Source of the DNA: Escherichia phage PGN6866
Sequence record: MT127620
Direction: 5' to 3' (one strand)
Length of the DNA stretch: 64,000 nt
Below are positions 2,414 through 62,164 of the stretch, piece after piece. The position numbers were made by a program, and so were the translations under genes. The notes beneath the pieces are model-generated. The model searched no databases. It was given only the letters and a program-made list of their open reading frames with translations, and was not told the DNA's origin. The first letter of the stretch is position 1. The number at the start of each line of letters is the position of its first letter.

Positions 2414-5056
2414 ATGATCGTTTATAATAACCAAGCACCTGATGCAGTGAATAACGTTGGGCAGTTTGGTGCTACTGAAGGCTCTATCGGAGCTTACAAG
2501 CAAGCAGCAGAGTATGCAGCTGACTCCAAATATTGGGCACTGCTAGCGGAGTCTAAGTTTGGTACAATCGATGACTTGATCGCTGAAGTGGAACGTCTGT
2601 ATCAACAAGGTGTTCTGATGAAGCAAGATATCGAGGATCTTAAGCAGGATTTTAAAGATCAAGATGCTCGTCTAATGACGTTAATTGCTCAAACTAACGC
2701 AGCAGTCTCTGATGCAAATAACGCAGTCGCCCTGATTAACCAGAAACTCATTGAAGTCCAGAATCAGCTTGATGTTCTGTTAGGAATGTCTGTTGATGTA
2801 ACAACCCTCCCTCCGGGAACTCCGGCTACTGGTTCTTTTAATCCTAACACTGGTGTAATTTCTTTAGGTATCCCAGAAGGTGAACCCGGAAAAGATGGTT
2901 CTGTTAAAGACTTGGATACAGCACCTACAGGTGTTCCAGAGCTAGGTGACTTGGGTTTCTATGTTGACAAAGATGACAATACCGTCCATAAAACTACTCT
3001 AGAGAATATTGCTAACTTAATCCCATCTGTTCGTTCTGTTTCTGTTAATGGGGGACCAGCTCTTGATGGAGAGGTTGCTCTAACAATCAACAAAGAGACA
3101 GTAGGTTTAGGAAATGTTCTGAACGTTGCTCAATACAGTCGTCAAGAGATTAATGACAAATTTGACAAGACTACCAAGACATACCAATCAAAAGCAGAAG
3201 CTGATGCTGATGCTCAGTATCGTCAAGTAGGTGAGAAAGTTTTAGTTTGGGAAGCTACTAAGTATGAATTCTATACTGTTGCTGCTAACAAAACACTAAC
3301 TCCTGTTAAAACTGAAGGTAGGATCCTTACTGTTAACTCCCGTTCTCCAGATTCCAGTGGTAACATTGACATTACTATTCCAACAGGAAACCCTTCTCTG
3401 TATCTTGGTGAGATGGTGATGTTCCCTTATGACCCAACGAAGAATATCTCCTATCCGGGTGTTCTTCCAGCTGACGGTCGTCTAGTATCTAAAGAATCTG
3501 CTTCAGACTTAGGTCCATCTCTTGTCAGTGGACAACTTCCTGTTGTTTCTGAAACTGAATGGCAAGCAGGGGCTAAACAATATTTCTCATGGGGTAAGCT
3601 AGCAGATGGGATTACTGATGCGGATTCTACTAATTTCATCAATATTCGACTTCCTGATTGGACTGGAGGGGAGGCAATAAGAGCACCAGATTCTGATAAA
3701 GATTCTCAGTATAATGGGTCTGTACAGGCTCAGAAACCTTATGTTGTCACTGTAAATAACCAAGCTCCTGATGAGATTACTGGTAATGTGAACATCTCCA
3801 GATCTATCTTGGGAGCAGCTTCTTCTGGTGCAAACTCTGATATAACATCCCTGACAGGACTCACTACAGCTCTCTCTATCGCTCAAGGCGGTACAGGAGG
3901 GAAAACTCCATCTGAAGCTAGGGCAAACCTGAATCTTGAAAGATTTCAACAAGACAATTCGCAGACTTTGATATATTCTCCTGATTATGCCCGTCGTGTT
4001 TATGTTGACAACACTGGTGGTTCTTGGGGGTGCCAGAACGTAACAGATGGCGGTTTTATTGCTCTTGGTATTCCTCAAGGGGGTACGGGAGCTAAGGATG
4101 CTGCTGGTGCACGAAGCAATCTCGGTTTGGGTTCAGTGTCCACGCTAAACAATATACCCGTAGCTAATGGAGGTACTGGAGCAACTACTGCTGCTGGTGC
4201 TCGTTCCAACTTAGGTCTCGGGAGTGTTTCTACTCTAGATAACGTCCCTATCGCTAGCGGTGGGACAGGTGCTGGGGATGCTGCTGGTGCAAGGTTTAAC
4301 CTAGGGTTGGGGAGTTCAGCTACTCTAAACACTGGAACTACCAGCGGTAATGTTCTTAAGGTTGGTGATTTTGGAATTGGAAGACCTGACGGTGCTCTTG
4401 TTTTTGATACTACTTCACAAGACCAACTTCTTGCTGGACTTGACACTTATGGGCTGTGTGTGTTTAGGAATAACCAACAAATAGCAGCACCTTGGGATAT
4501 ATGGAATTACTCCTCAAACCTCTTCTTTAGGGCAGGAGACACATACAGTATGATAAGTATTCCGTTTGAGTCTGCCGGTAAGATAAAAGTTTTTGGTGGT
4601 GCAGCAGGCAGTGGGTGGAAAACCTCAAGGACGGTATATGATACTGTAAATACAACTGTTGACGTCAATGGCTTTATCAAAGCAGCGTCACCAATAGTTA
4701 AGGTATTCCATGACGGAAGTTTTGAAACAAATGAACAATCTGATGGAGTTAGTGTTAAGAAAATCTCCACTGGGGTTTATTTAATTTCAGGGTGTCTTGG
4801 TCTTAATTCTGATGCAGGATGGGGTGGGGTAGATGGAGGCTTTGAAATCCCAATAGACCGAAACAAACAACCTAGAGTTTGGCTTGACTATGAGGTTAAA
4901 GAGGATGGTTCTCTTTTAATTAAAACTTATCATAGAACCCATTCAACATCCCCAGCTTTTGCTAGAAACGAGTTGGAAGGTTTTTCTGACGGAGACCCTG
5001 TTGACATTCCTAAGGATGCGTTCATTTCGGTTCGTGTTGAAATGCCTTCTAAGTAA
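2414..5056 (+). CDS. Tail fibre protein with repeated GGTG-x(6-8)-AR-x-NLGLG motifs
   Basis: Four tandem copies of a GGTGA..AGAR.NLGLGS repeat typical of phage tail fibres; RBS taaggag. Confidence 0.8.
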   Translation: MIVYNNQAPDAVNNVGQFGATEGSIGAYKQAAEYAADSKYWALLAESKFGTIDDLIAEVERLYQQGVLMKQDIEDLKQDFKDQDARLMTLIAQTNAAVSDANNAVALINQKLIEVQNQLDVLLGMSVDVTTLPPGTPATGSFNPNTGVISLGIPEGEPGKDGSVKDLDTAPTGVPELGDLGFYVDKDDNTVHKTTLENIANLIPSVRSVSVNGGPALDGEVALTINKETVGLGNVLNVAQYSRQEINDKFDKTTKTYQSKAEADADAQYRQVGEKVLVWEATKYEFYTVAANKTLTPVKTEGRILTVNSRSPDSSGNIDITIPTGNPSLYLGEMVMFPYDPTKNISYPGVLPADGRLVSKESASDLGPSLVSGQLPVVSETEWQAGAKQYFSWGKLADGITDADSTNFINIRLPDWTGGEAIRAPDSDKDSQYNGSVQAQKPYVVTVNNQAPDEITGNVNISRSILGAASSGANSDITSLTGLTTALSIAQGGTGGKTPSEARANLNLERFQQDNSQTLIYSPDYARRVYVDNTGGSWGCQNVTDGGFIALGIPQGGTGAKDAAGARSNLGLGSVSTLNNIPVANGGTGATTAAGARSNLGLGSVSTLDNVPIASGGTGAGDAAGARFNLGLGSSATLNTGTTSGNVLKVGDFGIGRPDGALVFDTTSQDQLLAGLDTYGLCVFRNNQQIAAPWDIWNYSSNLFFRAGDTYSMISIPFESAGKIKVFGGAAGSGWKTSRTVYDTVNTTVDVNGFIKAASPIVKVFHDGSFETNEQSDGVSVKKISTGVYLISGCLGLNSDAGWGGVDGGFEIPIDRNKQPRVWLDYEVKEDGSLLIKTYHRTHSTSPAFARNELEGFSDGDPVDIPKDAFISVRVEMPSK

Positions 5057-7371: not shown

Positions 7372-7590
7372 ATGAAAATGATGAAACAAGCTGCATACGG
7401 TTTAATATGTTTAGGCGCAGGTGTTGTGGTGTCGACCGCAGTTCCTGTAGGCGCAGTTCATCCATTAGTAACTGTCCCTGCTCCAGTAGAGAAGCTTAGT
7501 TCTCAATGTAAGCAGAGAACAATTCAAAATAACTTAGTTGTTATTTGCCCTGATGCTGAATCTAACGCTCTGAGAAAGATACTACCTTAA
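7372..7590 (+). CDS. Small protein with N-terminal hydrophobic segment (possible holin-like or secreted protein)
   Basis: 72 aa with one hydrophobic helix; directly upstream of lysozyme gene. Confidence 0.5.
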   Translation: MKMMKQAAYGLICLGAGVVVSTAVPVGAVHPLVTVPAPVEKLSSQCKQRTIQNNLVVICPDAESNALRKILP

Positions 7591-7619: not shown

Positions 7620-8111
7620 ATGGATAACGTCGCATTGCCACCTGTACAACTAAACTTAAGCCCAGCGGGAATGGAATTCATCATGAAGCATGAGGGTATG
7701 AGAACCAAGGCTTATAAAGATTCCGCAGGTATCTGGACTATATGTGTAGGGGCTACGCGCGATATGAATGGTTATCCGGTTAGACAAGGATTAACGTATT
7801 CTATAGAGGATTGTCTAGCTCTGCTAGATAGAGACACACAAGACTCTGTTCGTGCTACTCAGAAGAACATAAAGGTTCCTTTACTAGTTCATGAGTTTGA
7901 TGCACTCACTTCTTTCAACTTCAACGTTGGCAGTGGGGCTTTGAGCACATCTAAGTTAAGGAAGGTAATCAATGGAGATGTTAAGGGGGATGTTTATTCC
8001 GAATTTCTTCGTTGGGATAAAATAACGGTCAAGGGAGAGAAGCAGAGAAGTCAGGGTCTTCATAATAGAAGAGTTGCAGAAGCTAATCTTTACACCGAAG
8101 GTAAATATTAA
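7620..8111 (+). CDS. Lysozyme, glycoside hydrolase family 24 (T4 lysozyme-like)
   Basis: Motif EG.R.KAYKD.AG.WTICVG matches the GH24 catalytic region; RBS aaaggagg. Confidence 0.85.
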   Translation: MDNVALPPVQLNLSPAGMEFIMKHEGMRTKAYKDSAGIWTICVGATRDMNGYPVRQGLTYSIEDCLALLDRDTQDSVRATQKNIKVPLLVHEFDALTSFNFNVGSGALSTSKLRKVINGDVKGDVYSEFLRWDKITVKGEKQRSQGLHNRRVAEANLYTEGKY

Positions 8112-21500: not shown

Positions 21501-23008
21501 GGTTTATTAACACCTATAACAGAGAAGTGAATGCCTTCAACAAAGCTAACAAGAACTCTCAGTATGAAGCTGCTGCTAAGCATTTACAGGCTCGTGAAGA
21601 ACGTCTTGCTACCCTCAGGAAAAAAGCTCAGGCTCGTTCAGATGCTAAGGCTGCTGTTGAGAATGAACGTAAAACTCTAGAGGCTATTGCAGCTCAGAAG
21701 AGTGAGATTGAGAAGATGATGGAAGGTTTACCTAAACCTGTTCGTGAGGCTCAGGAATCTCGTACATTGAAACAGTTGGCTGCTCACCATGACAAGAACT
21801 CTCCAGTTCCTCCAGAGAAGTTCCGTAGTTACATTGAACGTATCCACAACGCCGAGTCAGATTACCTTGATCGTCAGCGTCGTTTAACTGATGCAGAGGA
21901 AGACGCTCGTCAGGCCAAGTGGAACAAGATGTATGAGCAAGCGGAAGAAATGAACCGTAAGTTTGATGTGGACAAGAGAGTTAAGCGCAGTGAAGAGCTT
22001 AAAGCGGCCCAAGAGCGTGAGAATGACCTTATGGCAGTACAACGTCAACGTGATGACATTCATCTCCGCCTGATGCGTACTATGGAAGATAAGGGCATAT
22101 CTAGAGAGGATGCTGAAGCATTTGCTGGTTCCTATATGGATAACCGTTATGCACTTCTTGAGAAGCCTATGACTCCCACTGAACATCAGAATGCTCGTTC
22201 TCGTATCGAAGCTGATGTTGAGAAGTTTGCTAAGAAGTACGAATCAATGACTCCTATCGAGAAAGAGATTGTTAAGGTTACTGGAGATACTGAAGGTAAG
22301 CTTGATAACTTGGATGCGGATACTAGGAAGGCTATTGAGGAGGCTCAGAAGGTTGACTCTGATATTAAGAAACTGCAAGAGGAAGAGTTGGAGATGGAGA
22401 AGATTCGTTCTGCTCTGCCTGATGATGAAAGATCTCAAGCAAATTCTGATATCTTGGAAAGCATTAAACAACAGGAAGAGGTCTTTGCTGATAAAGTAGA
22501 GAAAGCTTTCTTGAGTGGGAAGAGCTTGGATGAGTTGGCTAGTGTGGCTGAAGTTTTAGACAGGGTTCATGGTGCAGATAAGGCTGGTAACAACCGTCGC
22601 TTTGTACGTGCATTGCAGACTGCTGCTGAAAACAAGAAGAAGTATGGTGATAATCCAGTAGCTTGGTTTAGTGCTGATGATTACTCTGCCATTGCTAAAC
22701 TTGGTGCTTCTTCCGCAGGTGGTAACAAATCCAGAGCACTGGAGAAGATCTTTGGTTCTACAGCTGAACAGGCTAAGAGTAAGTTGCTTGGTAGGGATGA
22801 TGTAGCGAAGATTAGACGTGTGATTGAAGAGAACCCTGATATCAAGATTCCTTCTTACAAGACAACGAATCGTACTGAGTACTTGCAGTTCTTGGAGAAG
22901 TTTAATGACGAAGGGAAGCCGAAGATTAAACGTGGCTCATTGTCAGAGAAGCTTGAACGCAGTAAGCGTCAATCGAGACTCCGTGTAAGAGTTCGACCTA
23001 AGGAGTGA
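18584..23008 (+). CDS. Large coiled-coil-rich virion protein (~1470 aa), candidate internal/ejection protein
   Basis: Start moved to ATG with RBS aaaaggagac; long charged alpha-helical repeats; last gene of structural module. Confidence 0.7.
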   Translation: MANIKPWEEASKAPAYLNASPEQQAQMREQYKAAGGSIPEEQPVAQPQQEERGAIGEFAQGVSNALQSGGANIAASAAKGIGGLVEIGENLAGAQTSYGKRIQENSQNLLKERMDKIEDGIGKTVGQYAGVAGDIGMTVANPLAAAAIIAGRETGRAYADQTPEEGEDKSILDAALVGGANYAAQRILPGAVGTAESTLGRIGQNVASNAVAGAKGGALVGAAEAQNKHGDDTTFANVLESAIEEGAMGAAFGGAVGGVHGLISRPDSAVFKNTPEYAKTDIAADDELIRSAKNIDELKEAYSKAETANAASALNLLDENGFRITDAVAVDSPAAQRILNTDQARAEKAASVQKEHSNIPGLNPLASPAKTRGKAFADNEHNQKQAVAMKDAMADYTKDNTKALTDVLDNLDRELTSLRASGDFTGSPIDIKNRTQADRDFIDAYKTFYNEANRFKARDGEDFNNFVEKAAELQKMADNVSPEMKKAIGGLKKLKGMPEGFNPIQDAYTLNNTAKFMSNQDRGWTSLTDDGFREASSPSLVMNTLGAAKYALNRFSSQRARSQRVKQQESNSEAIRSLARGDLEVARAKSTADEARAKMEEEPVVDDIKFKTQNDVETEPVREPSSSTVTEENLPSSTPQETPLTARDLVAQRRAIRQAEQRRAEEEAAAAAQEAPVEQAPQAEPLPARNPLEERRAMEQQRAQEEAAQAPEPTVEEPTVKAEPLPARAPKAPKEAVQDVKPASGVERLAAMSSAARQATKDRAERFARSLYSKAAKAKATAENFLAYKGDPKELMRRIRQEDNAINTERHEEMARNQLASQQGIATAKNNTVRTNFAEWVKERGLPEDIATKALRAEEKGLGGNVTNLDSLKRRAERLYQKQREDEFDRLYQQALEENKAFDKKDAPKLVDQKKELQSEIDALIDSEPLRPAQKDAMRKLMNDFVDGKFKSSEKAGREEALEVGQMKDIWDGFINTYNREVNAFNKANKNSQYEAAAKHLQAREERLATLRKKAQARSDAKAAVENERKTLEAIAAQKSEIEKMMEGLPKPVREAQESRTLKQLAAHHDKNSPVPPEKFRSYIERIHNAESDYLDRQRRLTDAEEDARQAKWNKMYEQAEEMNRKFDVDKRVKRSEELKAAQERENDLMAVQRQRDDIHLRLMRTMEDKGISREDAEAFAGSYMDNRYALLEKPMTPTEHQNARSRIEADVEKFAKKYESMTPIEKEIVKVTGDTEGKLDNLDADTRKAIEEAQKVDSDIKKLQEEELEMEKIRSALPDDERSQANSDILESIKQQEEVFADKVEKAFLSGKSLDELASVAEVLDRVHGADKAGNNRRFVRALQTAAENKKKYGDNPVAWFSADDYSAIAKLGASSAGGNKSRALEKIFGSTAEQAKSKLLGRDDVAKIRRVIEENPDIKIPSYKTTNRTEYLQFLEKFNDEGKPKIKRGSLSEKLERSKRQSRLRVRVRPKE

Positions 23009-25538: not shown

Positions 25539-27024
<1,486 letters not shown>

Positions 27025-27025
<1 letters not shown>

Positions 27026-27288
27026 TATTCTATTCCACGCTCTTTCAGAGCTTCTAACAATCCGTTGTGATTGGCAGCACATTCTGTGTACTGGTCCTGA
27101 TACCACTCCAACGTAGTGGCTAGTGCTTTTCCTTGAGCACTTTCTAAAAGAGGCAGGTCAACCCTACATTCAGCTTTTAGGTTTGTTGGTAAGGGCATTG
27201 ATTGCCTGCTGTTGTCGCTCATTGAACAAGCTGACATACTCATCACTAGCGCAGACATTATAAAAAACTGGTTTAGTTTTCTCATAAT
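27025..27288 (-). CDS. Candidate o-spanin (Rz1-like lipoprotein) overlapping the i-spanin gene in another frame
   Basis: Signal peptide with lipobox-like MSAC followed by Pro-containing region; start overlaps 27170-27520. Confidence 0.5.
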
Positions 27289-27520
27289 GCATCTCTTTAT
27301 AAACGGTTTCCGTGTTCTTCTTCCAGTTAGATAAACCGGTAAGAACCCTCTGAGCAACTTCATCAGCTGCTCTACTTCTTTCAATCTCTAACTCTTGCTG
27401 GTGCTTCTCTTTGTCCAGATTACTGCTGTCTGTTTGATATTCGTTAAACTTCATACCACCAAAGAATACAAGAGCTGAGAAAACGATAAACCCTAAGTTG
27501 TCACTTAATGTGTTTTGCAT
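27170..27520 (-). CDS. Candidate i-spanin (Rz-like: N-terminal TM helix plus coiled coil)
   Basis: LGFIVFSALVFFGG TM then charged helical region; ATG with RBS ggaga chosen over track GTG inside the terminator. Confidence 0.5.
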   Translation of the reverse strand: MQNTLSDNLGFIVFSALVFFGGMKFNEYQTDSSNLDKEKHQQELEIERSRAADEVAQRVLTGLSNWKKNTETVYKEMHYEKTKPVFYNVCASDEYVSLFNERQQQAINALTNKPKS

Positions 27521-27531
27521 GTTGTCTCCAA

Positions 27532-27556
27532 CGAAAAAAGCCACCCGGAGGTGGCT
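27532..27556 (-). terminator. Rho-independent terminator after SSB-like gene
   Basis: gccacc-uccg-ggtggc hairpin followed by U6 on the minus strand. Confidence 0.5.
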
Positions 27557-27577: not shown

Positions 27578-28324
27578 TTAGAATGGGCTATCGTTGTCGT
27601 CTTCGTAAGTAGAAGCAGGCTCTTTATCAATCGTAGGGATTGAAGGGGTAGCTTCTTTCTGCTCTGTTTCAGAAGCACGAGTAATTTCACGACCAGCCAG
27701 AGGCATGTTCTTAGCGTCATTAGCTTGAGTAAGCAGGTTGCGCTGGAACGGGAACATCAGTTGATAGGATGCTACGTTCTCATCGGTTTCAGCATACGGT
27801 TCGAAGAATACCAGAGGACTACGAGCTTCACCAACTGCTGCACGATATTTGGTTGGGATTGGAGAAATAGTCTTGATGGAGTTTTTAACTTCACCAGCTT
27901 TGTTAGTGTAAGAGTTAACCAGAATGTTAACAGGCTGACCTAACAGAACATCCTTGAACCAAGACAGATCACCTTTCAGTGCTTGAATACTTGGGTCAAT
28001 CATCTTGCAAAGATCAAGAATACCAGAGTTCTTAGCTCGTGGGTTTACATCATAGCTCTTGAACTGGCAAGCCGGACGTGGTTCTAATGCCTTACCATCG
28101 GAATCTTTACCAGTAGCATCAACACCAATCAGCTCGAAAGCTAAATCCATACGGAAAGCCGGATTCTTAGGAGTCACTGCTTTGGTCTTCGGGTCAACCC
28201 AAGGGTCACGATTGTGAACACCCAAACCTACTACACGAACGATACGTGCTTCGTACTCACCATCAGGGATGATGTCGTAGTTGGATTTACGAGAAGAAGT
28301 TGCGATAGTTGGAATCATAGACAT
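27578..28324 (-). CDS. Candidate single-stranded DNA-binding protein (T7 gp2.5-like acidic C-tail ending in Phe)
   Basis: C-terminus YEDDNDSPF; position in replication module. Confidence 0.5.
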   Translation of the reverse strand: MSMIPTIATSSRKSNYDIIPDGEYEARIVRVVGLGVHNRDPWVDPKTKAVTPKNPAFRMDLAFELIGVDATGKDSDGKALEPRPACQFKSYDVNPRAKNSGILDLCKMIDPSIQALKGDLSWFKDVLLGQPVNILVNSYTNKAGEVKNSIKTISPIPTKYRAAVGEARSPLVFFEPYAETDENVASYQLMFPFQRNLLTQANDAKNMPLAGREITRASETEQKEATPSIPTIDKEPASTYEDDNDSPF

Positions 28325-28383
28325 ATTTTAATTTCCTTATTTAATTTGAAAGATTGTTGCTCTCTTTGAGCGGTTATGTATAG

Positions 28384-28392
28384 TATACATTA
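28384..28392 (-). promoter_or_regulatory. TAATGTATA motif in minus orientation, candidate promoter for leftward genes
   Basis: Reverse complement of the motif seen at 1610 and 18537; located in AT-rich intergenic region. Confidence 0.35.
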
Positions 28393-28455
28393 CGCTTATA
28401 CCGATAAGAGTACTATATAATATAAGTATCTTTGGTAGTAGATATAACACACTAG

Positions 28456-28466
28456 TAATGTATATA
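28456..28466 (+). promoter_or_regulatory. TAATGTATATA motif in plus orientation
   Basis: Third plus-strand copy; would drive transcription antisense to minus-strand genes. Confidence 0.3.
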
Positions 28467-28560
28467 TTGTATAGCTGATAAAGTTATTGCAGGCTTGTAT
28501 ATTGGGCAATTCACAGAATCCCTTGCAAGTACCGAAGGGCAGGAGCCACCTGCGAGATAA

Positions 28561-29275: not shown

Positions 29276-29439
29276 ACTTCTTCCTTGTATTCCCAATTTC
29301 TTTCATAATACCCAGAGTTATAGTTTAGGGCGCACTTCTCGGCCTCTTCTATGTCGTCAGTGTTTAGGATATTTACCCATCCTCCAACTTCATCAAAACC
29401 TTCTTCTACTTCGTTAAACCATACACTATACTTTTTCAT
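29272..29439 (-). CDS. Small hypothetical protein
   Basis: Start trimmed to ATG overlapping stop of upstream small ORF. Confidence 0.45.
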   Translation of the reverse strand: MKKYSVWFNEVEEGFDEVGGWVNILNTDDIEEAEKCALNYNSGYYERNWEYKEEV

Positions 29440-29612
29440 CGAGAAGTTCTTCCCCAATCTTTTACATAGCATCGACCGTTAACCCACTTTGTCTCTGACT
29501 TAAATTCCTGAGACAATCTCACTTCACAGTCTTCTCTACTGGCATCTCCTCCGATATCAATCAGATACAGGAAAAGAGCTATACCTAAAGCCCAAAGAAT
29601 TATCTTTTTCAT
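29436..29612 (-). CDS. Small membrane protein (58 aa, one N-terminal TM helix)
   Basis: Hand-translated MKKIILWALGIALFLYLI...; ATGA coupling to upstream gene. Confidence 0.4.
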   Translation of the reverse strand: MKKIILWALGIALFLYLIDIGGDASREDCEVRLSQEFKSETKWVNGRCYVKDWGRTSR

Positions 29613-30019
29613 CGAATCACCAAAGGCTCTTCAGAGTACACAGGAGCGGCTATTTCTACAGGAGGTGCTGCCCTAAGGTCATTAAGTCTTACGCCCTTCA
29701 GCATACCATCTAGGTGGTCCTTTTTGGGGATTCCAACAGGGAAGTCATCAATCCAGATATCGACGAAGAAACCTAACTGTCGACACACCTCATCCTTCTG
29801 CACACCATTACAAAAGATGACAGGGATTTGCAGGGTCTCTGCATCATAGAGGATATCCACGTTATCATAACCATTAGGCTCTGAGAAACGGAAAGTAACG
29901 AATCTTACATCATGTCCATACCCTTTCATCAATCCTATCACATCTCTCCACAGTCGTCTGTCTGCTGTGTAAGTGTCATCATAATCTAAACCAATATTCA
30001 TGTCAAACCCTTTAGACAA
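29609..30019 (-). CDS. HAD-superfamily phosphatase (possible nucleotidase)
   Basis: Motif I DYDDT near N-terminus and WIDD motif. Confidence 0.5.
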   Translation of the reverse strand: MSKGFDMNIGLDYDDTYTADRRLWRDVIGLMKGYGHDVRFVTFRFSEPNGYDNVDILYDAETLQIPVIFCNGVQKDEVCRQLGFFVDIWIDDFPVGIPKKDHLDGMLKGVRLNDLRAAPPVEIAAPVYSEEPLVIR

Positions 30020-35242: not shown

Positions 35243-35692
35243 TCAACTCTCTTCTAGTATAATCCTGTACATTGCTTCCTGAGCATCTTTCATATCTACA
35301 TATGGACCAAGCACCTCACTATCTTTTCTGATGAACCAATCACCTTCTTTGAATATCAGAGATACGTGAACATCTTTATTATTTGCTTTGACTGCTCGCC
35401 CCCATGCTGGGTTATGTCGGGATAAATTATCAATATGACAATTATCAGTGCGCCCATCCAGATGGTGTAAATAAGATTGAGGCCACTGGCCTGTCTCTTT
35501 ATACCATACGGCTTTCTTCAATTCAACAATGCCACATGGTAGTCCTATGTATAGGATATTAGGCTGTAAGCTAAAATTATACCACTTAGATGTGAAAGGG
35601 ATTAGAGGTTCCCTTTTGGTGAAAAACATCGGCCCCTCTCGAATGTATTCTAGACTATCTATACACTTCAAAATCTTTTCACTATAAAGCAT
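35243..35692 (-). CDS. HNH homing endonuclease with AP2-like DNA-binding domain
   Basis: HHLDGRTDNCHIDNL (HNH_3-type) motif plus C-terminal AP2-like segment. Confidence 0.7.
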   Translation of the reverse strand: MLYSEKILKCIDSLEYIREGPMFFTKREPLIPFTSKWYNFSLQPNILYIGLPCGIVELKKAVWYKETGQWPQSYLHHLDGRTDNCHIDNLSRHNPAWGRAVKANNKDVHVSLIFKEGDWFIRKDSEVLGPYVDMKDAQEAMYRIILEES

Positions 35693-36432
35693 TAACTGTT
35701 TACCTTTTCCATAGCTTTAACAATAGCTTTACAGAAACCAGAACGAACAATGTCATCTGATTCGCCGTCTACAATCTCAGCAAACTCATACAGATCGTGT
35801 TCATCAATAAAGTTAGTAGCCCAAGTAAGACCGCTCTCACGACCACGCATATCATGCTGGTTAGTATCACCCATGCAGAACAGCTGAGAGGTTTCTCCCA
35901 ATCGAGTCATGATTGAGAAGGCTTCATCTTTAGTGGTGTTCTGGAACTCATCAACAATAACAATAGCATCATTGAAAGAACGACCACGGAGATATTCCAG
36001 AGGTACGAACTCAATGTTACTGTTACCGAGCTGGCATTCATAGAACCCCTTACCGTATCGCTGAGTAATAACATCAATGATAGGCATCAGGTACGGTTCA
36101 AACTTCTCACGCATTCCTCCCGGAAGTAACCCAAGAGAGTTGCCCATGCCGACAGAAGGGCGACTCAGAATGATCTTCTGAATCTTACCGCTCTTCAGTG
36201 CATCAATAACTGTGGAAGTGATTACAAAGGTCTTACCACAGCCCGCAGGAGCGTCTGTGAACACAACTTGTTTAGTCTTAATAGCATTGAGTAGCTCAGA
36301 CTGAAACTGGTTCTGAGGGACTACAGGCTTTGCTAAAACCACCTCTTCATACTCTCGCTTACCTTTACGAGTAACAAGTGCTTCCCGACGAAGGTCTTTC
36401 CGTGATTCTTTCCGTGATTGACGACGACTCAT
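35692..36432 (-). CDS. phoH: PhoH-like ATPase
   Basis: Walker A APAGCGKTF and overall PhoH pattern. Confidence 0.85.
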   Translation of the reverse strand: MSRRQSRKESRKDLRREALVTRKGKREYEEVVLAKPVVPQNQFQSELLNAIKTKQVVFTDAPAGCGKTFVITSTVIDALKSGKIQKIILSRPSVGMGNSLGLLPGGMREKFEPYLMPIIDVITQRYGKGFYECQLGNSNIEFVPLEYLRGRSFNDAIVIVDEFQNTTKDEAFSIMTRLGETSQLFCMGDTNQHDMRGRESGLTWATNFIDEHDLYEFAEIVDGESDDIVRSGFCKAIVKAMEKVNS

Positions 36433-52068: not shown

Positions 52069-52875
52069 TTATGCTACCTGAAGGAGTTTGATCTGCTGGT
52101 CAGCTTCTTTAACGTTGTTCCCGTTAATGATTTCATGAAGCTTCTCAATCGGAAGGCGAGAGTGCAATGCCATCAGAGTGGACATATCACACTGCTGAAC
52201 AACCTTGTCAACCTGATCGTAAACAAACTTACGGTTTTCACGATCACTAATCCAGAAGTTAGACAGAGAACGGTATTCAATACCATAGTCTTTATAACGG
52301 ATTGCAGATGCTTTACCGTAGAGTTCTTTACGGCGAGTATCTTTGTCCATAATTACTGCTGGGAGAGACAGGAAGTAGTCACACAGCACACCCAGCATCA
52401 TCTGAGTTTGCAGAGTGATATCCAAAGCACCAACTACGCCAAGATGTACGTGACCACCGGCAGTACGAAGTCCCTTATTCTGAGAAGTCGGGGACGGGTT
52501 TTTCTGACCAGTGAAGGCGTTGAAATCAGGAGTGCACCCGAAGATGAACGCTGATTCATTAAAGGTCTTCATCTCTTCTTCAGTGAAGATGTGAGAGCTA
52601 ACACCCGGAGCTGTTTCCATGTCCAGCTTGTTCAGGACATTATTGGTGAGATCAATACCACGTTGCATGTTATCGTTAAACGCTTCAAAACCGCTCTGTG
52701 GGTCAATATCAAACTCAGCCAGTACGTTGTCCTCTTGGAGACGAACATCCTTAGCCAGAGCGATCTTATCGTCCTTAGAGCAGCCTAATAAACCGGCTAC
52801 AGAAGTGATGATACCACTGCTAGTACGAACAAACATTTCAGGGTCAGAGCCGATAAGGAATTTGCGCTTAGTCAT
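52069..52875 (-). CDS. Hypothetical protein, possibly a second amidoligase-like enzyme
   Basis: LIGSDPEMF and TAGGHVHLGV resemble divergent E-x-E / HxH motifs; weak. Confidence 0.5.
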   Translation of the reverse strand: MTKRKFLIGSDPEMFVRTSSGIITSVAGLLGCSKDDKIALAKDVRLQEDNVLAEFDIDPQSGFEAFNDNMQRGIDLTNNVLNKLDMETAPGVSSHIFTEEEMKTFNESAFIFGCTPDFNAFTGQKNPSPTSQNKGLRTAGGHVHLGVVGALDITLQTQMMLGVLCDYFLSLPAVIMDKDTRRKELYGKASAIRYKDYGIEYRSLSNFWISDRENRKFVYDQVDKVVQQCDMSTLMALHSRLPIEKLHEIINGNNVKEADQQIKLLQVA

Positions 52876-55060: not shown

Positions 55061-55423
55061 CTATTGGTTTTTAATCAACTCGATCGACTTACGAATATAA
55101 AGAATATCTCGGAAGTTTCGATAGTTGTTCATAAATTGGTGCTTCTGGAAAGTAGCTTCTTCCAGAGCTTTCTTTGCTTCTGCGTAGCTTTTACGGGCAA
55201 GATGTACAACCCGCTCTGGTAGCATGTTTGCACGACGGATGATATACTTGTGAGCTTTCATGTTGCTTTGCTCACGAGCAATCTTACCTTTAGCAACTTT
55301 GATACCATTTGCAATCCAAGCAAGTTCTTGCTCAAGTTCATCGTTGGACATTCCACCGAGATTTGATGCAACCTTGTTCAGAGTTTCAATATTAACGTTG
55401 CCCTTGATGGGACGTGTATTCAT
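55061..55423 (-). CDS. Hypothetical helical protein (120 aa)
   Basis: ORF. Confidence 0.5.
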   Translation of the reverse strand: MNTRPIKGNVNIETLNKVASNLGGMSNDELEQELAWIANGIKVAKGKIAREQSNMKAHKYIIRRANMLPERVVHLARKSYAEAKKALEEATFQKHQFMNNYRNFRDILYIRKSIELIKNQ

Positions 55424-55425
55424 AC

Positions 55426-55578
55426 TTACTCCTGTTGTTTACACTCGTCAATAACCCACTGATAAGTGGATTGCCCAGAAAAGAAACACTGAATAAATCC
55501 AGATGTTCTCTGCGTTACCAGTGCTAGTGCACAAATCACTACCGCTGCTGCTAGCAGTTTTAAATCTAATTTAGACAT
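55426..55578 (-). CDS. Small protein with N-terminal signal/TM segment (50 aa)
   Basis: Hand-translated; RBS gagga. Confidence 0.35.
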   Translation of the reverse strand: MSKLDLKLLAAAVVICALALVTQRTSGFIQCFFSGQSTYQWVIDECKQQE

Positions 55579-61906: not shown

Positions 61907-62164
61907 CTACTTACCCTTGTTGGTAATAATAACATCATGAAGAAGAACAATCTTGCTTTTCGAGCTAAGCTTAAGGACTTGCTTATTTGTCAGACTAAGG
62001 ACGACACAACCACCATCAGAAGGTTTAGTCTCCTCGACCTGTGATTTGAACAACTGAACAACCATGTAGAAATCTGCCCGTGTTTCCCTGATTTGGAATA
62101 CATCTCCAATTTTGAGATCACCAACACATAGAGATGGTTCATTTACCTTCAAATCAATCTTCAT
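61907..62164 (-). CDS. Small protein, paralogous family member
   Basis: VGDLKIGDVF pattern. Confidence 0.5.
   Translation of the reverse strand: MKIDLKVNEPSLCVGDLKIGDVFQIRETRADFYMVVQLFKSQVEETKPSDGGCVVLSLTNKQVLKLSSKSKIVLLHDVIITNKGK

Follow-up and report, generated by a model that had tools for sequence, protein, structure and literature searches.

Two overlapping genes on the minus strand of the 64,000-nucleotide stretch of DNA analysed here (the window) very probably encode the two-component spanin of a phiEco32-like Kuravirus, completing a lysis gene set of holin, endolysin, i-spanin and o-spanin. The window shares 98.5-98.8% nucleotide identity with phiEco32 and ShigP1. Both open reading frames of the spanin-like pair named in a preliminary description of this DNA are present on the minus strand, where they overlap by 116 nt in different (+1) frames, and, by the criteria of Summer (2007) and Kongari et al. 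(2018), the two-component arrangement proposed there is borne out by each feature open to testing in silico, the coiled coil excepted. The interval originally assigned to the pair, 27025-27544, is sound as the union of the longest possible frames (GTG start at 27544, TTG start at 27384), although the true starts lie inside it. The spanin function of the pair rests on architecture, annotation and gene context, and a non-systematic look at the literature turned up no experimentally tested member of this spanin sequence family. Both the pair and its distance from the other lysis genes are real, correctly read and ordinary; the identical pair has been listed before, by Kongari et al. (2018, PMC6139136), in RefSeq and in the ShigP1 annotation, and nothing about it is new.

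The i-spanin gene (27170-27520, minus strand), the orthologue of phiEco32 gp39, begins with an ATG and encodes 116 aa; reading of the sequence places a Shine-Dalgarno element, GGAGA (27525-27529, minus strand), 4 nt 5' of this start. The product has one hydrophobic segment only, at residues ~9-23 (Kyte-Doolittle 15-residue maximum mean of 2.23 at residue 9), specified by the codons at 27452-27496 on the minus strand (LGFIVFSALVFFGGM). An AlphaFold model of modest confidence (pLDDT 63.5) has a helix over residues 3-80, a break, and a second helix over residues 93-111, and the phiEco32 i-spanin was scored as 61% helix by Jpred (Kongari et al., 2018, Table S2). The protein would thus consist of an N-terminal transmembrane anchor and a helical periplasmic domain in a presumed N-in/C-out placement, a topology that the positive-inside rule alone does not predict, as the N-terminal tail carries no positive charge. 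The coiled coil initially attributed to the Rz-like protein is not supported: helices are predicted, but Pepcoil finds 0 coiled-coil segments in the phiEco32 i-spanin, as is also the case for more than 120 accepted i-spanins (Kongari et al., 2018, Table S3 and text). For this reason the details of the coiled-coil mechanism of lambda may not apply to this protein. Its family membership is well marked, with residues 3-116 aligning to positions 6-127 of the 127-position profile of PHROG 1152, 'Rz-like spanin' (E=2.7e-37), complete (100%) identity to the ShigP1 'Rz-like spanin', and annotation of the family as spanin in 434 phage records. The single invariant cysteine, C90, and the motif EKTKPVFYNxC are kept across four phage genera.

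The o-spanin gene (27025-27285, minus strand), orthologous to phiEco32 gp38 with a corrected start, also opens with ATG and encodes an 86-aa precursor with a predicted mature form of 67 aa. Its N-terminus comprises MRK, a hydrophobic core and the lipobox M17-S18-A19-C20 (MSAC; codons 27226-27237, minus strand), which was located by regular expression and satisfies the PROSITE PS51257 rule, in agreement with the overlapping lipoprotein frame first noted at this position. Cys20 is the predicted site of lipidation and of signal peptidase II cleavage, and Ser21 at +2, a position free of Asp, predicts sorting to the outer membrane. Three frames in the window satisfy the PS51257 rule, the other two being a COOH-NH2 ligase enzyme and a 43-45-aa frame with a non-hydrophobic N-terminus. 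Residues 6-84 align to positions 3-82 of the 86-position profile of PHROG 2425 (E=3.7e-26), a family labelled 'unknown function', and the protein also matches the spanin family PHROG 456 weakly. In tblastn searches similarity extends over residues 1-86, with 94-100% identity in most of the listed kuraviruses (75-100% overall; 96.5% to the NJ01 o-spanin and 100% to the FS2B and ev_rybdy8 proteins); for Sashavirus, Gorganvirus and Erwinia/Ounavirinae phages the figure is 28-40%. The lipobox cysteine is invariant across the family within the variants MSAC, MSSC, LSAC, MLGC, TLGC, IAGC and ISAC, and C40, C69 and a CAxxHNGL motif are likewise invariant. Jpred predicts the protein to be ~46% helical, it contains three prolines, and its AlphaFold model is uninformative (pLDDT 49.6).

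The two genes share 116 nt of dual-coding sequence (27170-27285, minus strand), in which the same bases specify the i-spanin motif (YEKTKPVFYNVC) and the start and signal peptide of the o-spanin (MRKLNQFFIMSA). The o-spanin reads in the +1 frame relative to the i-spanin and runs 145 nt past its stop codon. Relatives were recovered productively by tblastn against phage genomes, while an IMG/VR locus scan gave only 6 loci. The +1 lipoprotein frame accompanies the i-spanin motif in all 12 related loci that carry it, down to 55% i-spanin identity; the overlap junction is kept as far as Felixounavirus and both frames are retained in relatives down to ~30% identity. Among 14 distant representatives of the family, the lipobox is present in each of the 13 complete sequences, the remaining one being an N-terminally incomplete fragment. 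In the divergent relatives L010, L011, L004 and L005 the overlap has diverged by 6-28%, compared with 15-42% and 26-40% in the single-coding flanks, and third-codon-position substitutions follow the i-frame in the part that encodes the i-spanin only and the o-frame in the 145-nt part that encodes the o-spanin only. As judged from these comparisons, the pair is linked, +1-overlapped and conserved to a degree that exceeds chance.

The wider setting of the locus bears on how the pair is expressed. The preliminary description placed it in a minus-strand replication module; the strand is right, and the more exact label is middle-gene cluster, with genes for a DNA polymerase, an exonuclease, a dNMP kinase, the sigma factor and a Macro-domain protein. 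The dispersal of lysis genes described there was also found: the plus strand carries endolysin and holin at 7.4-8.1 kb, the minus strand carries the spanins at 27.0-27.5 kb, and 18.9 kb separate the end of the endolysin gene from that of the o-spanin gene. The lysozyme it had recognized is a 163-aa GH24 endolysin (7620-8111, plus strand; PF00959, E=3.7e-32; PHROG 7, endolysin) encoded among late structural genes, and it has no hydrophobic N-terminus (Kyte-Doolittle 19-residue maximum mean 0.95). Directly 5' of it, the possible holin-like frame is a 72-aa protein (7372-7590, plus strand) that matches phrog_11161, 'holin' (E=2.8e-50), and has a single N-terminal hydrophobic segment (Kyte-Doolittle 19-residue maximum mean 2.15); by annotation it is a putative holin. 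The corresponding annotations in phiEco32 are 'holin' for gp16 and 'endolysin' for gp17. Lipobox and open reading frame screening of the 64 kb returned no other spanin candidates: a lipobox-like frame at 52069-52836 was dismissed as a COOH-NH2 ligase enzyme, and those at 22681-22845, 55260-55454 and 61990-62127 were dismissed as having neither family support nor a membrane-protein partner. A second wall hydrolase near the spanins was also considered, since in a relative a gene upstream of them gave a faint hint of Peptidase_M15_4; the frame at 29609-30019, its presumed counterpart in the window, contains a DxD-type motif (GLDYDDT) and looks more like a phosphatase fold, and the candidate was dropped.

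Upstream of the pair and of the gene-40 homologue, for which a PDB sequence search gave no match, lies an exact match to the gp36 sigma consensus promoter (TAATGTATA; 28384-28392, minus strand). Of the promoters identified, it lies closest upstream of the 40-39-38-37 gene string, and both the gp36 consensus and a mapped promoter before phiEco32 gene 40 have been described (PMC8948821, PMC4331800). Between the gene-40 homologue and the i-spanin ribosome-binding site is a G+C-rich, terminator-like hairpin with a U-tract (27533-27556, minus strand, the hairpin occupying 27539-27556; dG -13.7 kcal/mol, z = -3.85), which is kept in L004, L005, L010 and L011, the stem of L004 showing a compensatory change. 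Transcripts that start at the upstream promoter and extend into the spanin genes must read through this element. Given this setting, a middle-gene cluster in which a gp36-sigma promoter and a conserved hairpin/U-tract precede the pair, and with the temporal class of genes 38 and 39 taken from secondary descriptions, the spanins are probably made earlier than the products of the late lysis genes, and at a low, read-through level.

The sequence of events that such a pair would mediate can be proposed on the model of lambda Rz/Rz1. The i-spanin would be anchored in the inner membrane, its helical domain extending into the periplasm, and the Lol system would deliver the o-spanin, lipidated at Cys20 and cut by signal peptidase II, to the inner leaflet of the outer membrane. 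The two proteins would bind one another via their C-terminal parts, and disulfide-linked dimers may form, the candidate cysteines being C90 of the i-spanin and C40 and C69 of the o-spanin. The resulting complexes would cross the periplasm through the peptidoglycan mesh and would be inert while that mesh is intact. Once the action of the putative holin (7372-7590) has enabled the GH24 endolysin (7620-8111) to destroy the peptidoglycan, the complexes would be freed to fuse the inner and outer membranes, and lysis would be complete. Because such a complex would be harmless until the wall is gone, the spanin genes need neither proximity to the holin and endolysin genes nor expression at the same time.

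Existing annotation gives a different picture of the downstream gene. In the GenBank records of phiEco32 and ShigP1 the o-spanin starts at an internal methionine, Met31, giving a 57-aa product from which the signal peptide is lost, and most metagenome gene calls, retrieved by a word-indexed protein search that returned close relatives only, also correspond to this form. Such records could be taken to mean that only the i-spanin-like gene is real and that the downstream gene encodes a 57-aa cytoplasmic protein with an accidental 'signal peptide' in front of it. This is extremely unlikely, as relatives that have Thr (L004-L007, P0006) or Val (L011) in place of Met31 still retain the upstream start, the hydrophobic core and the lipobox cysteine; tblastn similarity that reaches residue 1, a lipobox in every complete distant representative and the same start correction made for NJ01 and phiEco32 (Kongari et al., 2018) all argue against it. 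Wrong o-spanin starts are a common annotation error (Kongari et al., 2018), and internal-methionine starts in phiEco32-type records and in at least one Felixounavirus record remove both signal peptide and lipobox; it is because these features are dropped that automatic pipelines label the o-spanin 'hypothetical protein'. That the overlapping +1 frame is merely open by chance and has no product is scarcely conceivable. Frames of ~100 codons do occur by chance in the window, an example being the 107-aa antisense frame at 26793-27116, but this explanation is already contradicted by the conservation data, in which the frame, the lipobox, three cysteines and the C-terminal motif persist to ~30% identity and the 145-nt non-overlapping part has a third-position bias in the o-frame.

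If both proteins are made, they might still serve some other envelope system unrelated to lysis, such as superinfection exclusion or receptor masking, in which a phage lipoprotein would act with a membrane partner, of the kind exemplified by T5 Llp or the lambdoid Cor. The neighbours of the pair, middle genes for DNA and nucleotide metabolism and transcription in place of a holin and endolysin, would suit such a role, as would the 'unknown function' label of PHROG 2425 and a literature look that yielded no experimental data for the family. Even so, this is very unlikely: homologues in Sashavirus and Gorganvirus take the place of a spanin immediately behind holin and endolysin, the 434 records mentioned above annotate the i-spanin family as spanin, strict pairing, +1 overlap and conserved periplasmic cysteines agree with the definition of a spanin, and the window offers no alternative spanin candidate. 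Spanins are normally required by phages whose host is Gram-negative and whose endolysin is soluble. A two-component spanin is the preferred reading of the pair.

The combined features of the locus also invite a more specific proposal, namely that this spanin family differs from lambda Rz/Rz1 in detail and provides an early, low-level, dosage-limited lysis step; taken as a whole this is tentative and rather doubtful. Its parts are that the i-spanin is a short helical protein without a predicted coiled coil, that the o-spanin is structured and partly helical, with two invariant cysteines and the CAxxHNGL motif, rather than a proline-rich thread, and that transcription of the kuravirus pair may start at a middle promoter, P40, and depend on reading through the hairpin/U-tract directly next to the i-spanin ribosome-binding site. 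Were all of this true, the final step of lysis would be pre-positioned and uncoupled from the late holin-endolysin genes. The findings have little consequence beyond correct annotation, with some relevance to the engineering of therapeutic coliphages, in which the spanin genes are part of a middle-gene cluster, are coupled to the genes for the Macro-domain protein and the sigma factor, and share 116 nt of dual-coding sequence.

Comparison with known systems places the pair on familiar ground. The same locus is found in phiEco32 (gp39/gp38) and in the other Kuravirus pairs of ShigP1, NJ01, ECBP2, KBNP1711 and SU10, and the gene lengths, the 116-nt overlap and the flanks (gene 40, Macro-domain gene, sigma factor) are the same, with no substantive difference. 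The ShigP1 genes are named 'Rz-like spanin' and 'o-spanin', and gp39 is 'Rz-like spanin' in the phiEco32 RefSeq record. In the catalogue of Kongari et al. (2018, PMC6139136) PhiEco32 belongs to the overlapped class, with an i-spanin of 116 aa, an o-spanin of 86 aa (67 mature) and a 116-nt overlap, the o-spanin having the same length and coordinates in their Table S4; its i-spanin falls in the family 'JH2', which includes Felix O1, and its o-spanin in a group with those of NJ01, ECBP2 and KBNP1711. A 2026 paper on Kuravirus likewise reports a transmembrane domain in the i-spanin and a lipobox in the o-spanin. Felixounavirus has the motif EKTKPxFYNxCxTDxY and the position of the o-spanin start in common with the pair in the window. 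More distant homologues occur in Sashavirus (9NA-like; gp55/gp56) and Gorganvirus (Proteus phage PM-CJR), with 33-34% identity for the i-spanin and 28-40% for the o-spanin, and these too are overlapped in the +1 frame and have the lipobox and the conserved cysteines. The 9NA/Sasha and phiEa104 o-spanins were placed in separate groups by Kongari et al. (2018), whereas tblastn and profile searches link them here at 28-40% identity. In Sashavirus and Gorganvirus the pair closes a contiguous holin-endolysin-spanin cassette, whereas that of the window lies 19 kb away on the opposite strand.

Lambda Rz/Rz1 likewise combine an N-terminally anchored inner-membrane protein having a helical periplasmic domain with a +1-frame outer-membrane lipoprotein, with periplasmic cysteines in both, and on this analogy the same membrane-fusion role is presumed for the pair in the window. 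Sequence homology to lambda was not detected, hhalign giving a probability of 0.2% against Rz and of 8% against Rz1, in the lipobox region only, and neither protein matched a Pfam or NCBIfam spanin model (Pfam at E<=1), including Rz PF03245 and Rz1 PF06085. Rz1 is fully embedded in Rz, proline-rich and unstructured with 40 mature residues, whereas the o-spanin of the window is partly overlapped and has 67; moreover, Rz/Rz1 follow S and R directly, whereas the pair in the window does not adjoin its holin and endolysin genes. Similar sizes, and a Felixounavirus pair that adjoins a polynucleotide kinase gene as in T4, prompted a comparison with T4 PseT.3/PseT.2. Sequence similarity to these proteins was not detectable by BLASTP (the i-spanin gave E=0.33 and the o-spanin did not align), and the T4 pair is of the 'separated' architecture, in contrast to the 116-nt overlap here. 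The T4 proteins are of similar size (117 aa compared with 116 aa for the i-spanin, 83 aa compared with 86 aa for the o-spanin), a C-terminal helix is predicted in the o-spanin, and the genes are also unlinked from holin t and endolysin e, among early and middle metabolism genes. Unlinked spanin genes are thus a documented situation, with T4 pseT.3/pseT.2 as an example; linkage is not obligatory, and the dispersal seen here has precedents. The overlap itself takes the form seen in the prototype of its class, LysB/LysC of P2, whose o-spanin gene begins within the i-spanin gene, is read in the +1 frame and runs on past the i-spanin stop codon (Kongari et al., 2018), as here; P2 keeps LysB/LysC inside its lysis cassette.

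It is clear that the overlapping pair of open reading frames (ORFs) claimed in the preliminary description at 27025-27544, an interval that covers both ORFs in their longest possible forms, is present on the minus strand. The i-spanin gene occupies 27170-27520 (minus strand), with an ATG at 27520 and GGAGA 4 nt upstream of it, and encodes 116 aa. The o-spanin gene (27025-27285, minus strand) begins with an ATG at 27285 and encodes 86 aa; the two have 116 nt in common, with the o-spanin frame displaced by +1, one base downstream. The reading of this pair as a two-component spanin is borne out by its topology signals, pairing and conservation, all of which are directly observed, so the feature is real and its interpretation correct, although the pair was known before. 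The 2-kb stretch at the locus is 98.5-98.8% identical to Escherichia phage phiEco32 and Shigella phage ShigP1 and is matched by 98 phage records, nearly all of them coliphages, the matching phages belonging to the genus Kuravirus of the subfamily Gordonclarkvirinae. As in phiEco32, the minus-strand order is gene 40, gp39 (the i-spanin), gp38 (the o-spanin), gp37 (a Macro-domain protein) and gp36 (a sigma factor), followed by genes for a GTP-binding protein, a dNMP kinase and an exonuclease, with the DNA polymerase gene farther upstream.

The sole hydrophobic segment of the i-spanin is LGFIVFSALVFFGGM (residues 9-23), and the remainder of the protein is highly charged. In an AlphaFold model of modest confidence (9 input sequences, pLDDT 63.5) a long helix (3-80) and a second helix (93-111) are separated by a break at 81-92 that surrounds the conserved KPVFYNVC. 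The coiled coil at first attributed to this protein is unsupported, the tables of Kongari et al. (2018) recording zero Pepcoil coiled coils for phiEco32; a predicted helical domain is supported instead. The 86-aa o-spanin starts with MRKLNQFFIMSALVMSMSAC, followed by S, in which a basic start precedes a hydrophobic core and then the lipobox M-S-A-C; its Cys is residue 20, and Ser occupies +2. It is one of only three ORFs in the window (1456 candidate starts, at least 40 codons, six frames) that pass the PROSITE PS51257 lipoprotein rule. The second of these encodes a COOH-NH2 ligase enzyme, and the third, of 43-45 aa, has an N-terminus that is not hydrophobic; no further spanin candidates were found in the window.

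The annotated start of the o-spanin requires correction. The GenBank/RefSeq entries phi32_38 and ShigP1_00076 begin at an internal methionine, Met31 (57 aa; window 27025-27198, minus strand), as do most metagenome gene calls, and with this start the signal peptide and lipobox are lost. Because several relatives with the full upstream signal have Thr or Val in place of Met31, the 86-aa form is the right one. The Felixounavirus entry finno_42 is also shortened, beginning MSGC, and the ORF from MKKLSQSFIMFVLLITMSGC is intact there (3200-3469 of the comparison locus L016).

An antisense chance ORF of 107 codons is present in the same region, and ORF length alone is therefore no proof of the o-spanin frame. 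Judged by their conservation, the spanin frames are more than chance. A lipobox-bearing +1 ORF overlaps the i-spanin 3' end in all 12 of the related loci in which the i-spanin motif was found, including metagenomic relatives at only ~55% i-spanin identity, with lipobox variants MSAC, MSSC, LSAC, MLGC and TLGC and an ATG or TTG start codon. In the more divergent comparisons the 116-nt overlap differs less from the window (6-28% of nucleotides) than does either single-coding part (i-only 15-42%, o-only 26-40%). Substitutions cluster at i-frame third positions in the i-only part and at o-frame third positions in the o-only part, and each frame is therefore under purifying selection where it is singly read. 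Within the overlap the changes fall mainly at i-frame third positions, and thus the i-spanin motif is the more constrained, with the o-spanin signal peptide absorbing changes. The same bases specify the most conserved i-spanin motif and the beginning of the o-spanin with its signal peptide (M[RK]KL.QFFIMS), a junction that is kept out to Felixounavirus.

The family extends well beyond Kuravirus. A tblastn search of 50,697 phage genomes gave 434 records with the i-spanin and 194 with the o-spanin. Distant matches, at 28-40% identity over nearly the whole length, come from Felixounavirus and related Erwinia-infecting Ounavirinae, Sashavirus (9NA-like), Gorganvirus (Proteus phages) and Klebsiella phages; many of these homologues carry i-spanin/o-spanin annotation. 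One Cys is invariant in the i-spanin alignments, inside EKTKPxFYNxCxTDxY, and the o-spanin invariants are three Cys, one of them that of the lipobox, and the C-terminal motif CAxxHNGL. When 1.84 billion cluster representatives were searched with an o-spanin profile, just 24 clusters matched at E<=0.001; 14 representatives were inspected, and in all 13 complete ones a lipobox precedes the same motifs, whereas the 14th is an N-terminally incomplete fragment.

Dispersal of the lysis functions, with a lysozyme and a possible holin-like ORF on the plus strand at 7.4-8.1 kb, had also been proposed at the outset and proves to be real. The endolysin (7620-8111, plus strand; Pfam Phage_lysozyme, E=3.7e-32) and an annotated, putative 72-aa holin (7372-7590, plus strand), whose one hydrophobic segment is N-terminal and whose family support comes from a phage-specific PHROG only, lie between tail genes in the late cluster, and 18.9 kb separates the endolysin stop from the o-spanin stop on the opposite strand. 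A 2026 Kuravirus paper describes a 'SAR endolysin' with the spanin genes adjacent to it (PMC13417854), whereas the endolysin of the window, with the catalytic pattern E-x8-D-x5-T, lacks a hydrophobic N-terminus (Kyte-Doolittle 19-residue mean at most 0.95) and is separated from the spanins by 19 kb. The homologous pair of Salmonella phage Sasha ends a contiguous cassette of holin, endolysin, membrane protein, i-spanin and o-spanin, and that of Proteus phage PM-CJR comes after a holin and a peptidoglycan hydrolase; of the indirect evidence that the pair acts in lysis, this is the strongest. The Felixounavirus pair is found near the rIIB and polynucleotide kinase genes.

On the model of lambda Rz/Rz1, which is established knowledge (summarised in PMC6139136), the i-spanin would be anchored in the inner membrane, and the o-spanin would be lipidated at Cys20 and then sorted to the outer membrane. 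The two would bind via their C-terminal parts, held as disulfide-linked dimers, and the complexes would cross the periplasm through the peptidoglycan mesh, freed for membrane fusion only once holin and endolysin had destroyed the wall. For the present pair we infer lipidation, complex formation, fusion and timing. Because the action of the complex would depend on wall loss, the spanin genes could tolerate earlier expression and an unlinked position.

The middle and late genes of phiEco32 are transcribed by host RNA polymerase with gp36, which targets the single element tAATGTAtA, and one of the six mapped promoters precedes gene 40 (PMC8948821, PMC4331800). An exact match to this P40 element, TAATGTATA, lies at 28384-28392 (minus strand), 60 nt upstream of the gene-40 homologue; window-wide, the count of one-mismatch matches is not above chance. 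The element sits inside a near-palindrome, TAATGTATAcTATACATaA (region 28374-28473), with a second exact copy at 28456-28464 (plus strand) and a neighbouring one-mismatch copy at 28465-28473, all within the AT-rich gap of ~310 nt that separates gene 41 from gene 40. Downstream of gene 40, before the i-spanin gene, is a terminator-like, G+C-rich hairpin with six U (hairpin 27539-27556, with U-tract 27533-27556, minus strand; dG -13.7 kcal/mol, z = -3.85), which ends 10 nt before the ribosome-binding site. Hairpin, U-tract and spacing are kept in relatives at only 55% protein identity, with a compensatory stem change in the related locus L004, and this hairpin may terminate transcription leakily and so keep the spanin dose low compared with gene 40. 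L004 also has an HNH endonuclease gene inserted ahead of the hairpin. In the sequence TAATG (27023-27027, minus strand) the o-spanin stop codon runs into the start codon of the Macro-domain (Appr-1-p processing) gene, an arrangement suggesting that the spanin genes and gp37 are translationally coupled in one operon. At the 3' end of that gene, just upstream of the sigma-factor gene, is a strong match to a sigma-70-type promoter (26584-26613, minus strand; TGGACA, 18-nt spacer, TATAAT; 11 of 12 positions match), in agreement with the published statement that gene 36 has its own host-type promoter. The cluster with the polymerase and sigma factor has been described as middle class, and we infer that the spanin genes likewise belong to the middle class and that their expression depends on read-through of a leaky terminator.

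The gene-40 homologue itself (27578-28324, minus strand; 248 aa), which has its own gp36-type promoter and the downstream hairpin, belongs to PHROG 6599 (unknown function) and gave no match in Pfam or in a PDB sequence search. Its product has an acidic C-terminal tail, ...STYEDDNDSPF, which we take to resemble the C-terminal tails of single-stranded DNA-binding proteins. Farther along, a 58-aa ORF (29436-29612, minus strand) with an N-terminal hydrophobic segment, MKKIILWALGIALFLYLIDIGG..., adjoins a 136-aa ORF (29609-30019, minus strand) with a DxD-type motif, GLDYDDT. A relative's presumed equivalent of the latter carries a 'faint' Peptidase_M15_4 flag, and the protein was set aside as a wall hydrolase since it looks like a phosphatase-type fold instead.

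Exactly this pair has been catalogued before. Kongari et al. (2018; PMC6139136) listed PhiEco32 under 'overlapped' two-component spanins, placing its i-spanin in family JH2 together with Felix O1 and its o-spanin in the NJ01/ECBP2/KBNP1711/PhiEco32 group. In their Table S4 the genes are at i 35417-35768 and o 35272-35533 and overlap by 116, and elsewhere in their tables the proteins are 116 aa and 86 aa (67 mature residues) long, with 61% and 46% helix; the gene lengths, 116-nt overlap and protein lengths derived from the window equal these figures. RefSeq names gp39 'Rz-like spanin', the ShigP1 record annotates both genes, and two recent Kuravirus papers mention spanins. Apart from the pair itself, the points of note are the correction to the o-spanin annotation and the conserved hairpin before the spanin genes. 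Unlinked spanin genes are documented in T4, and dispersed lysis genes have been noted in the related phage Privateer. By sequence the pair falls outside both lambda Rz/Rz1 and T4 PseT.3/PseT.2, and it is a functional analogue of these systems, with a catalogued family of its own.
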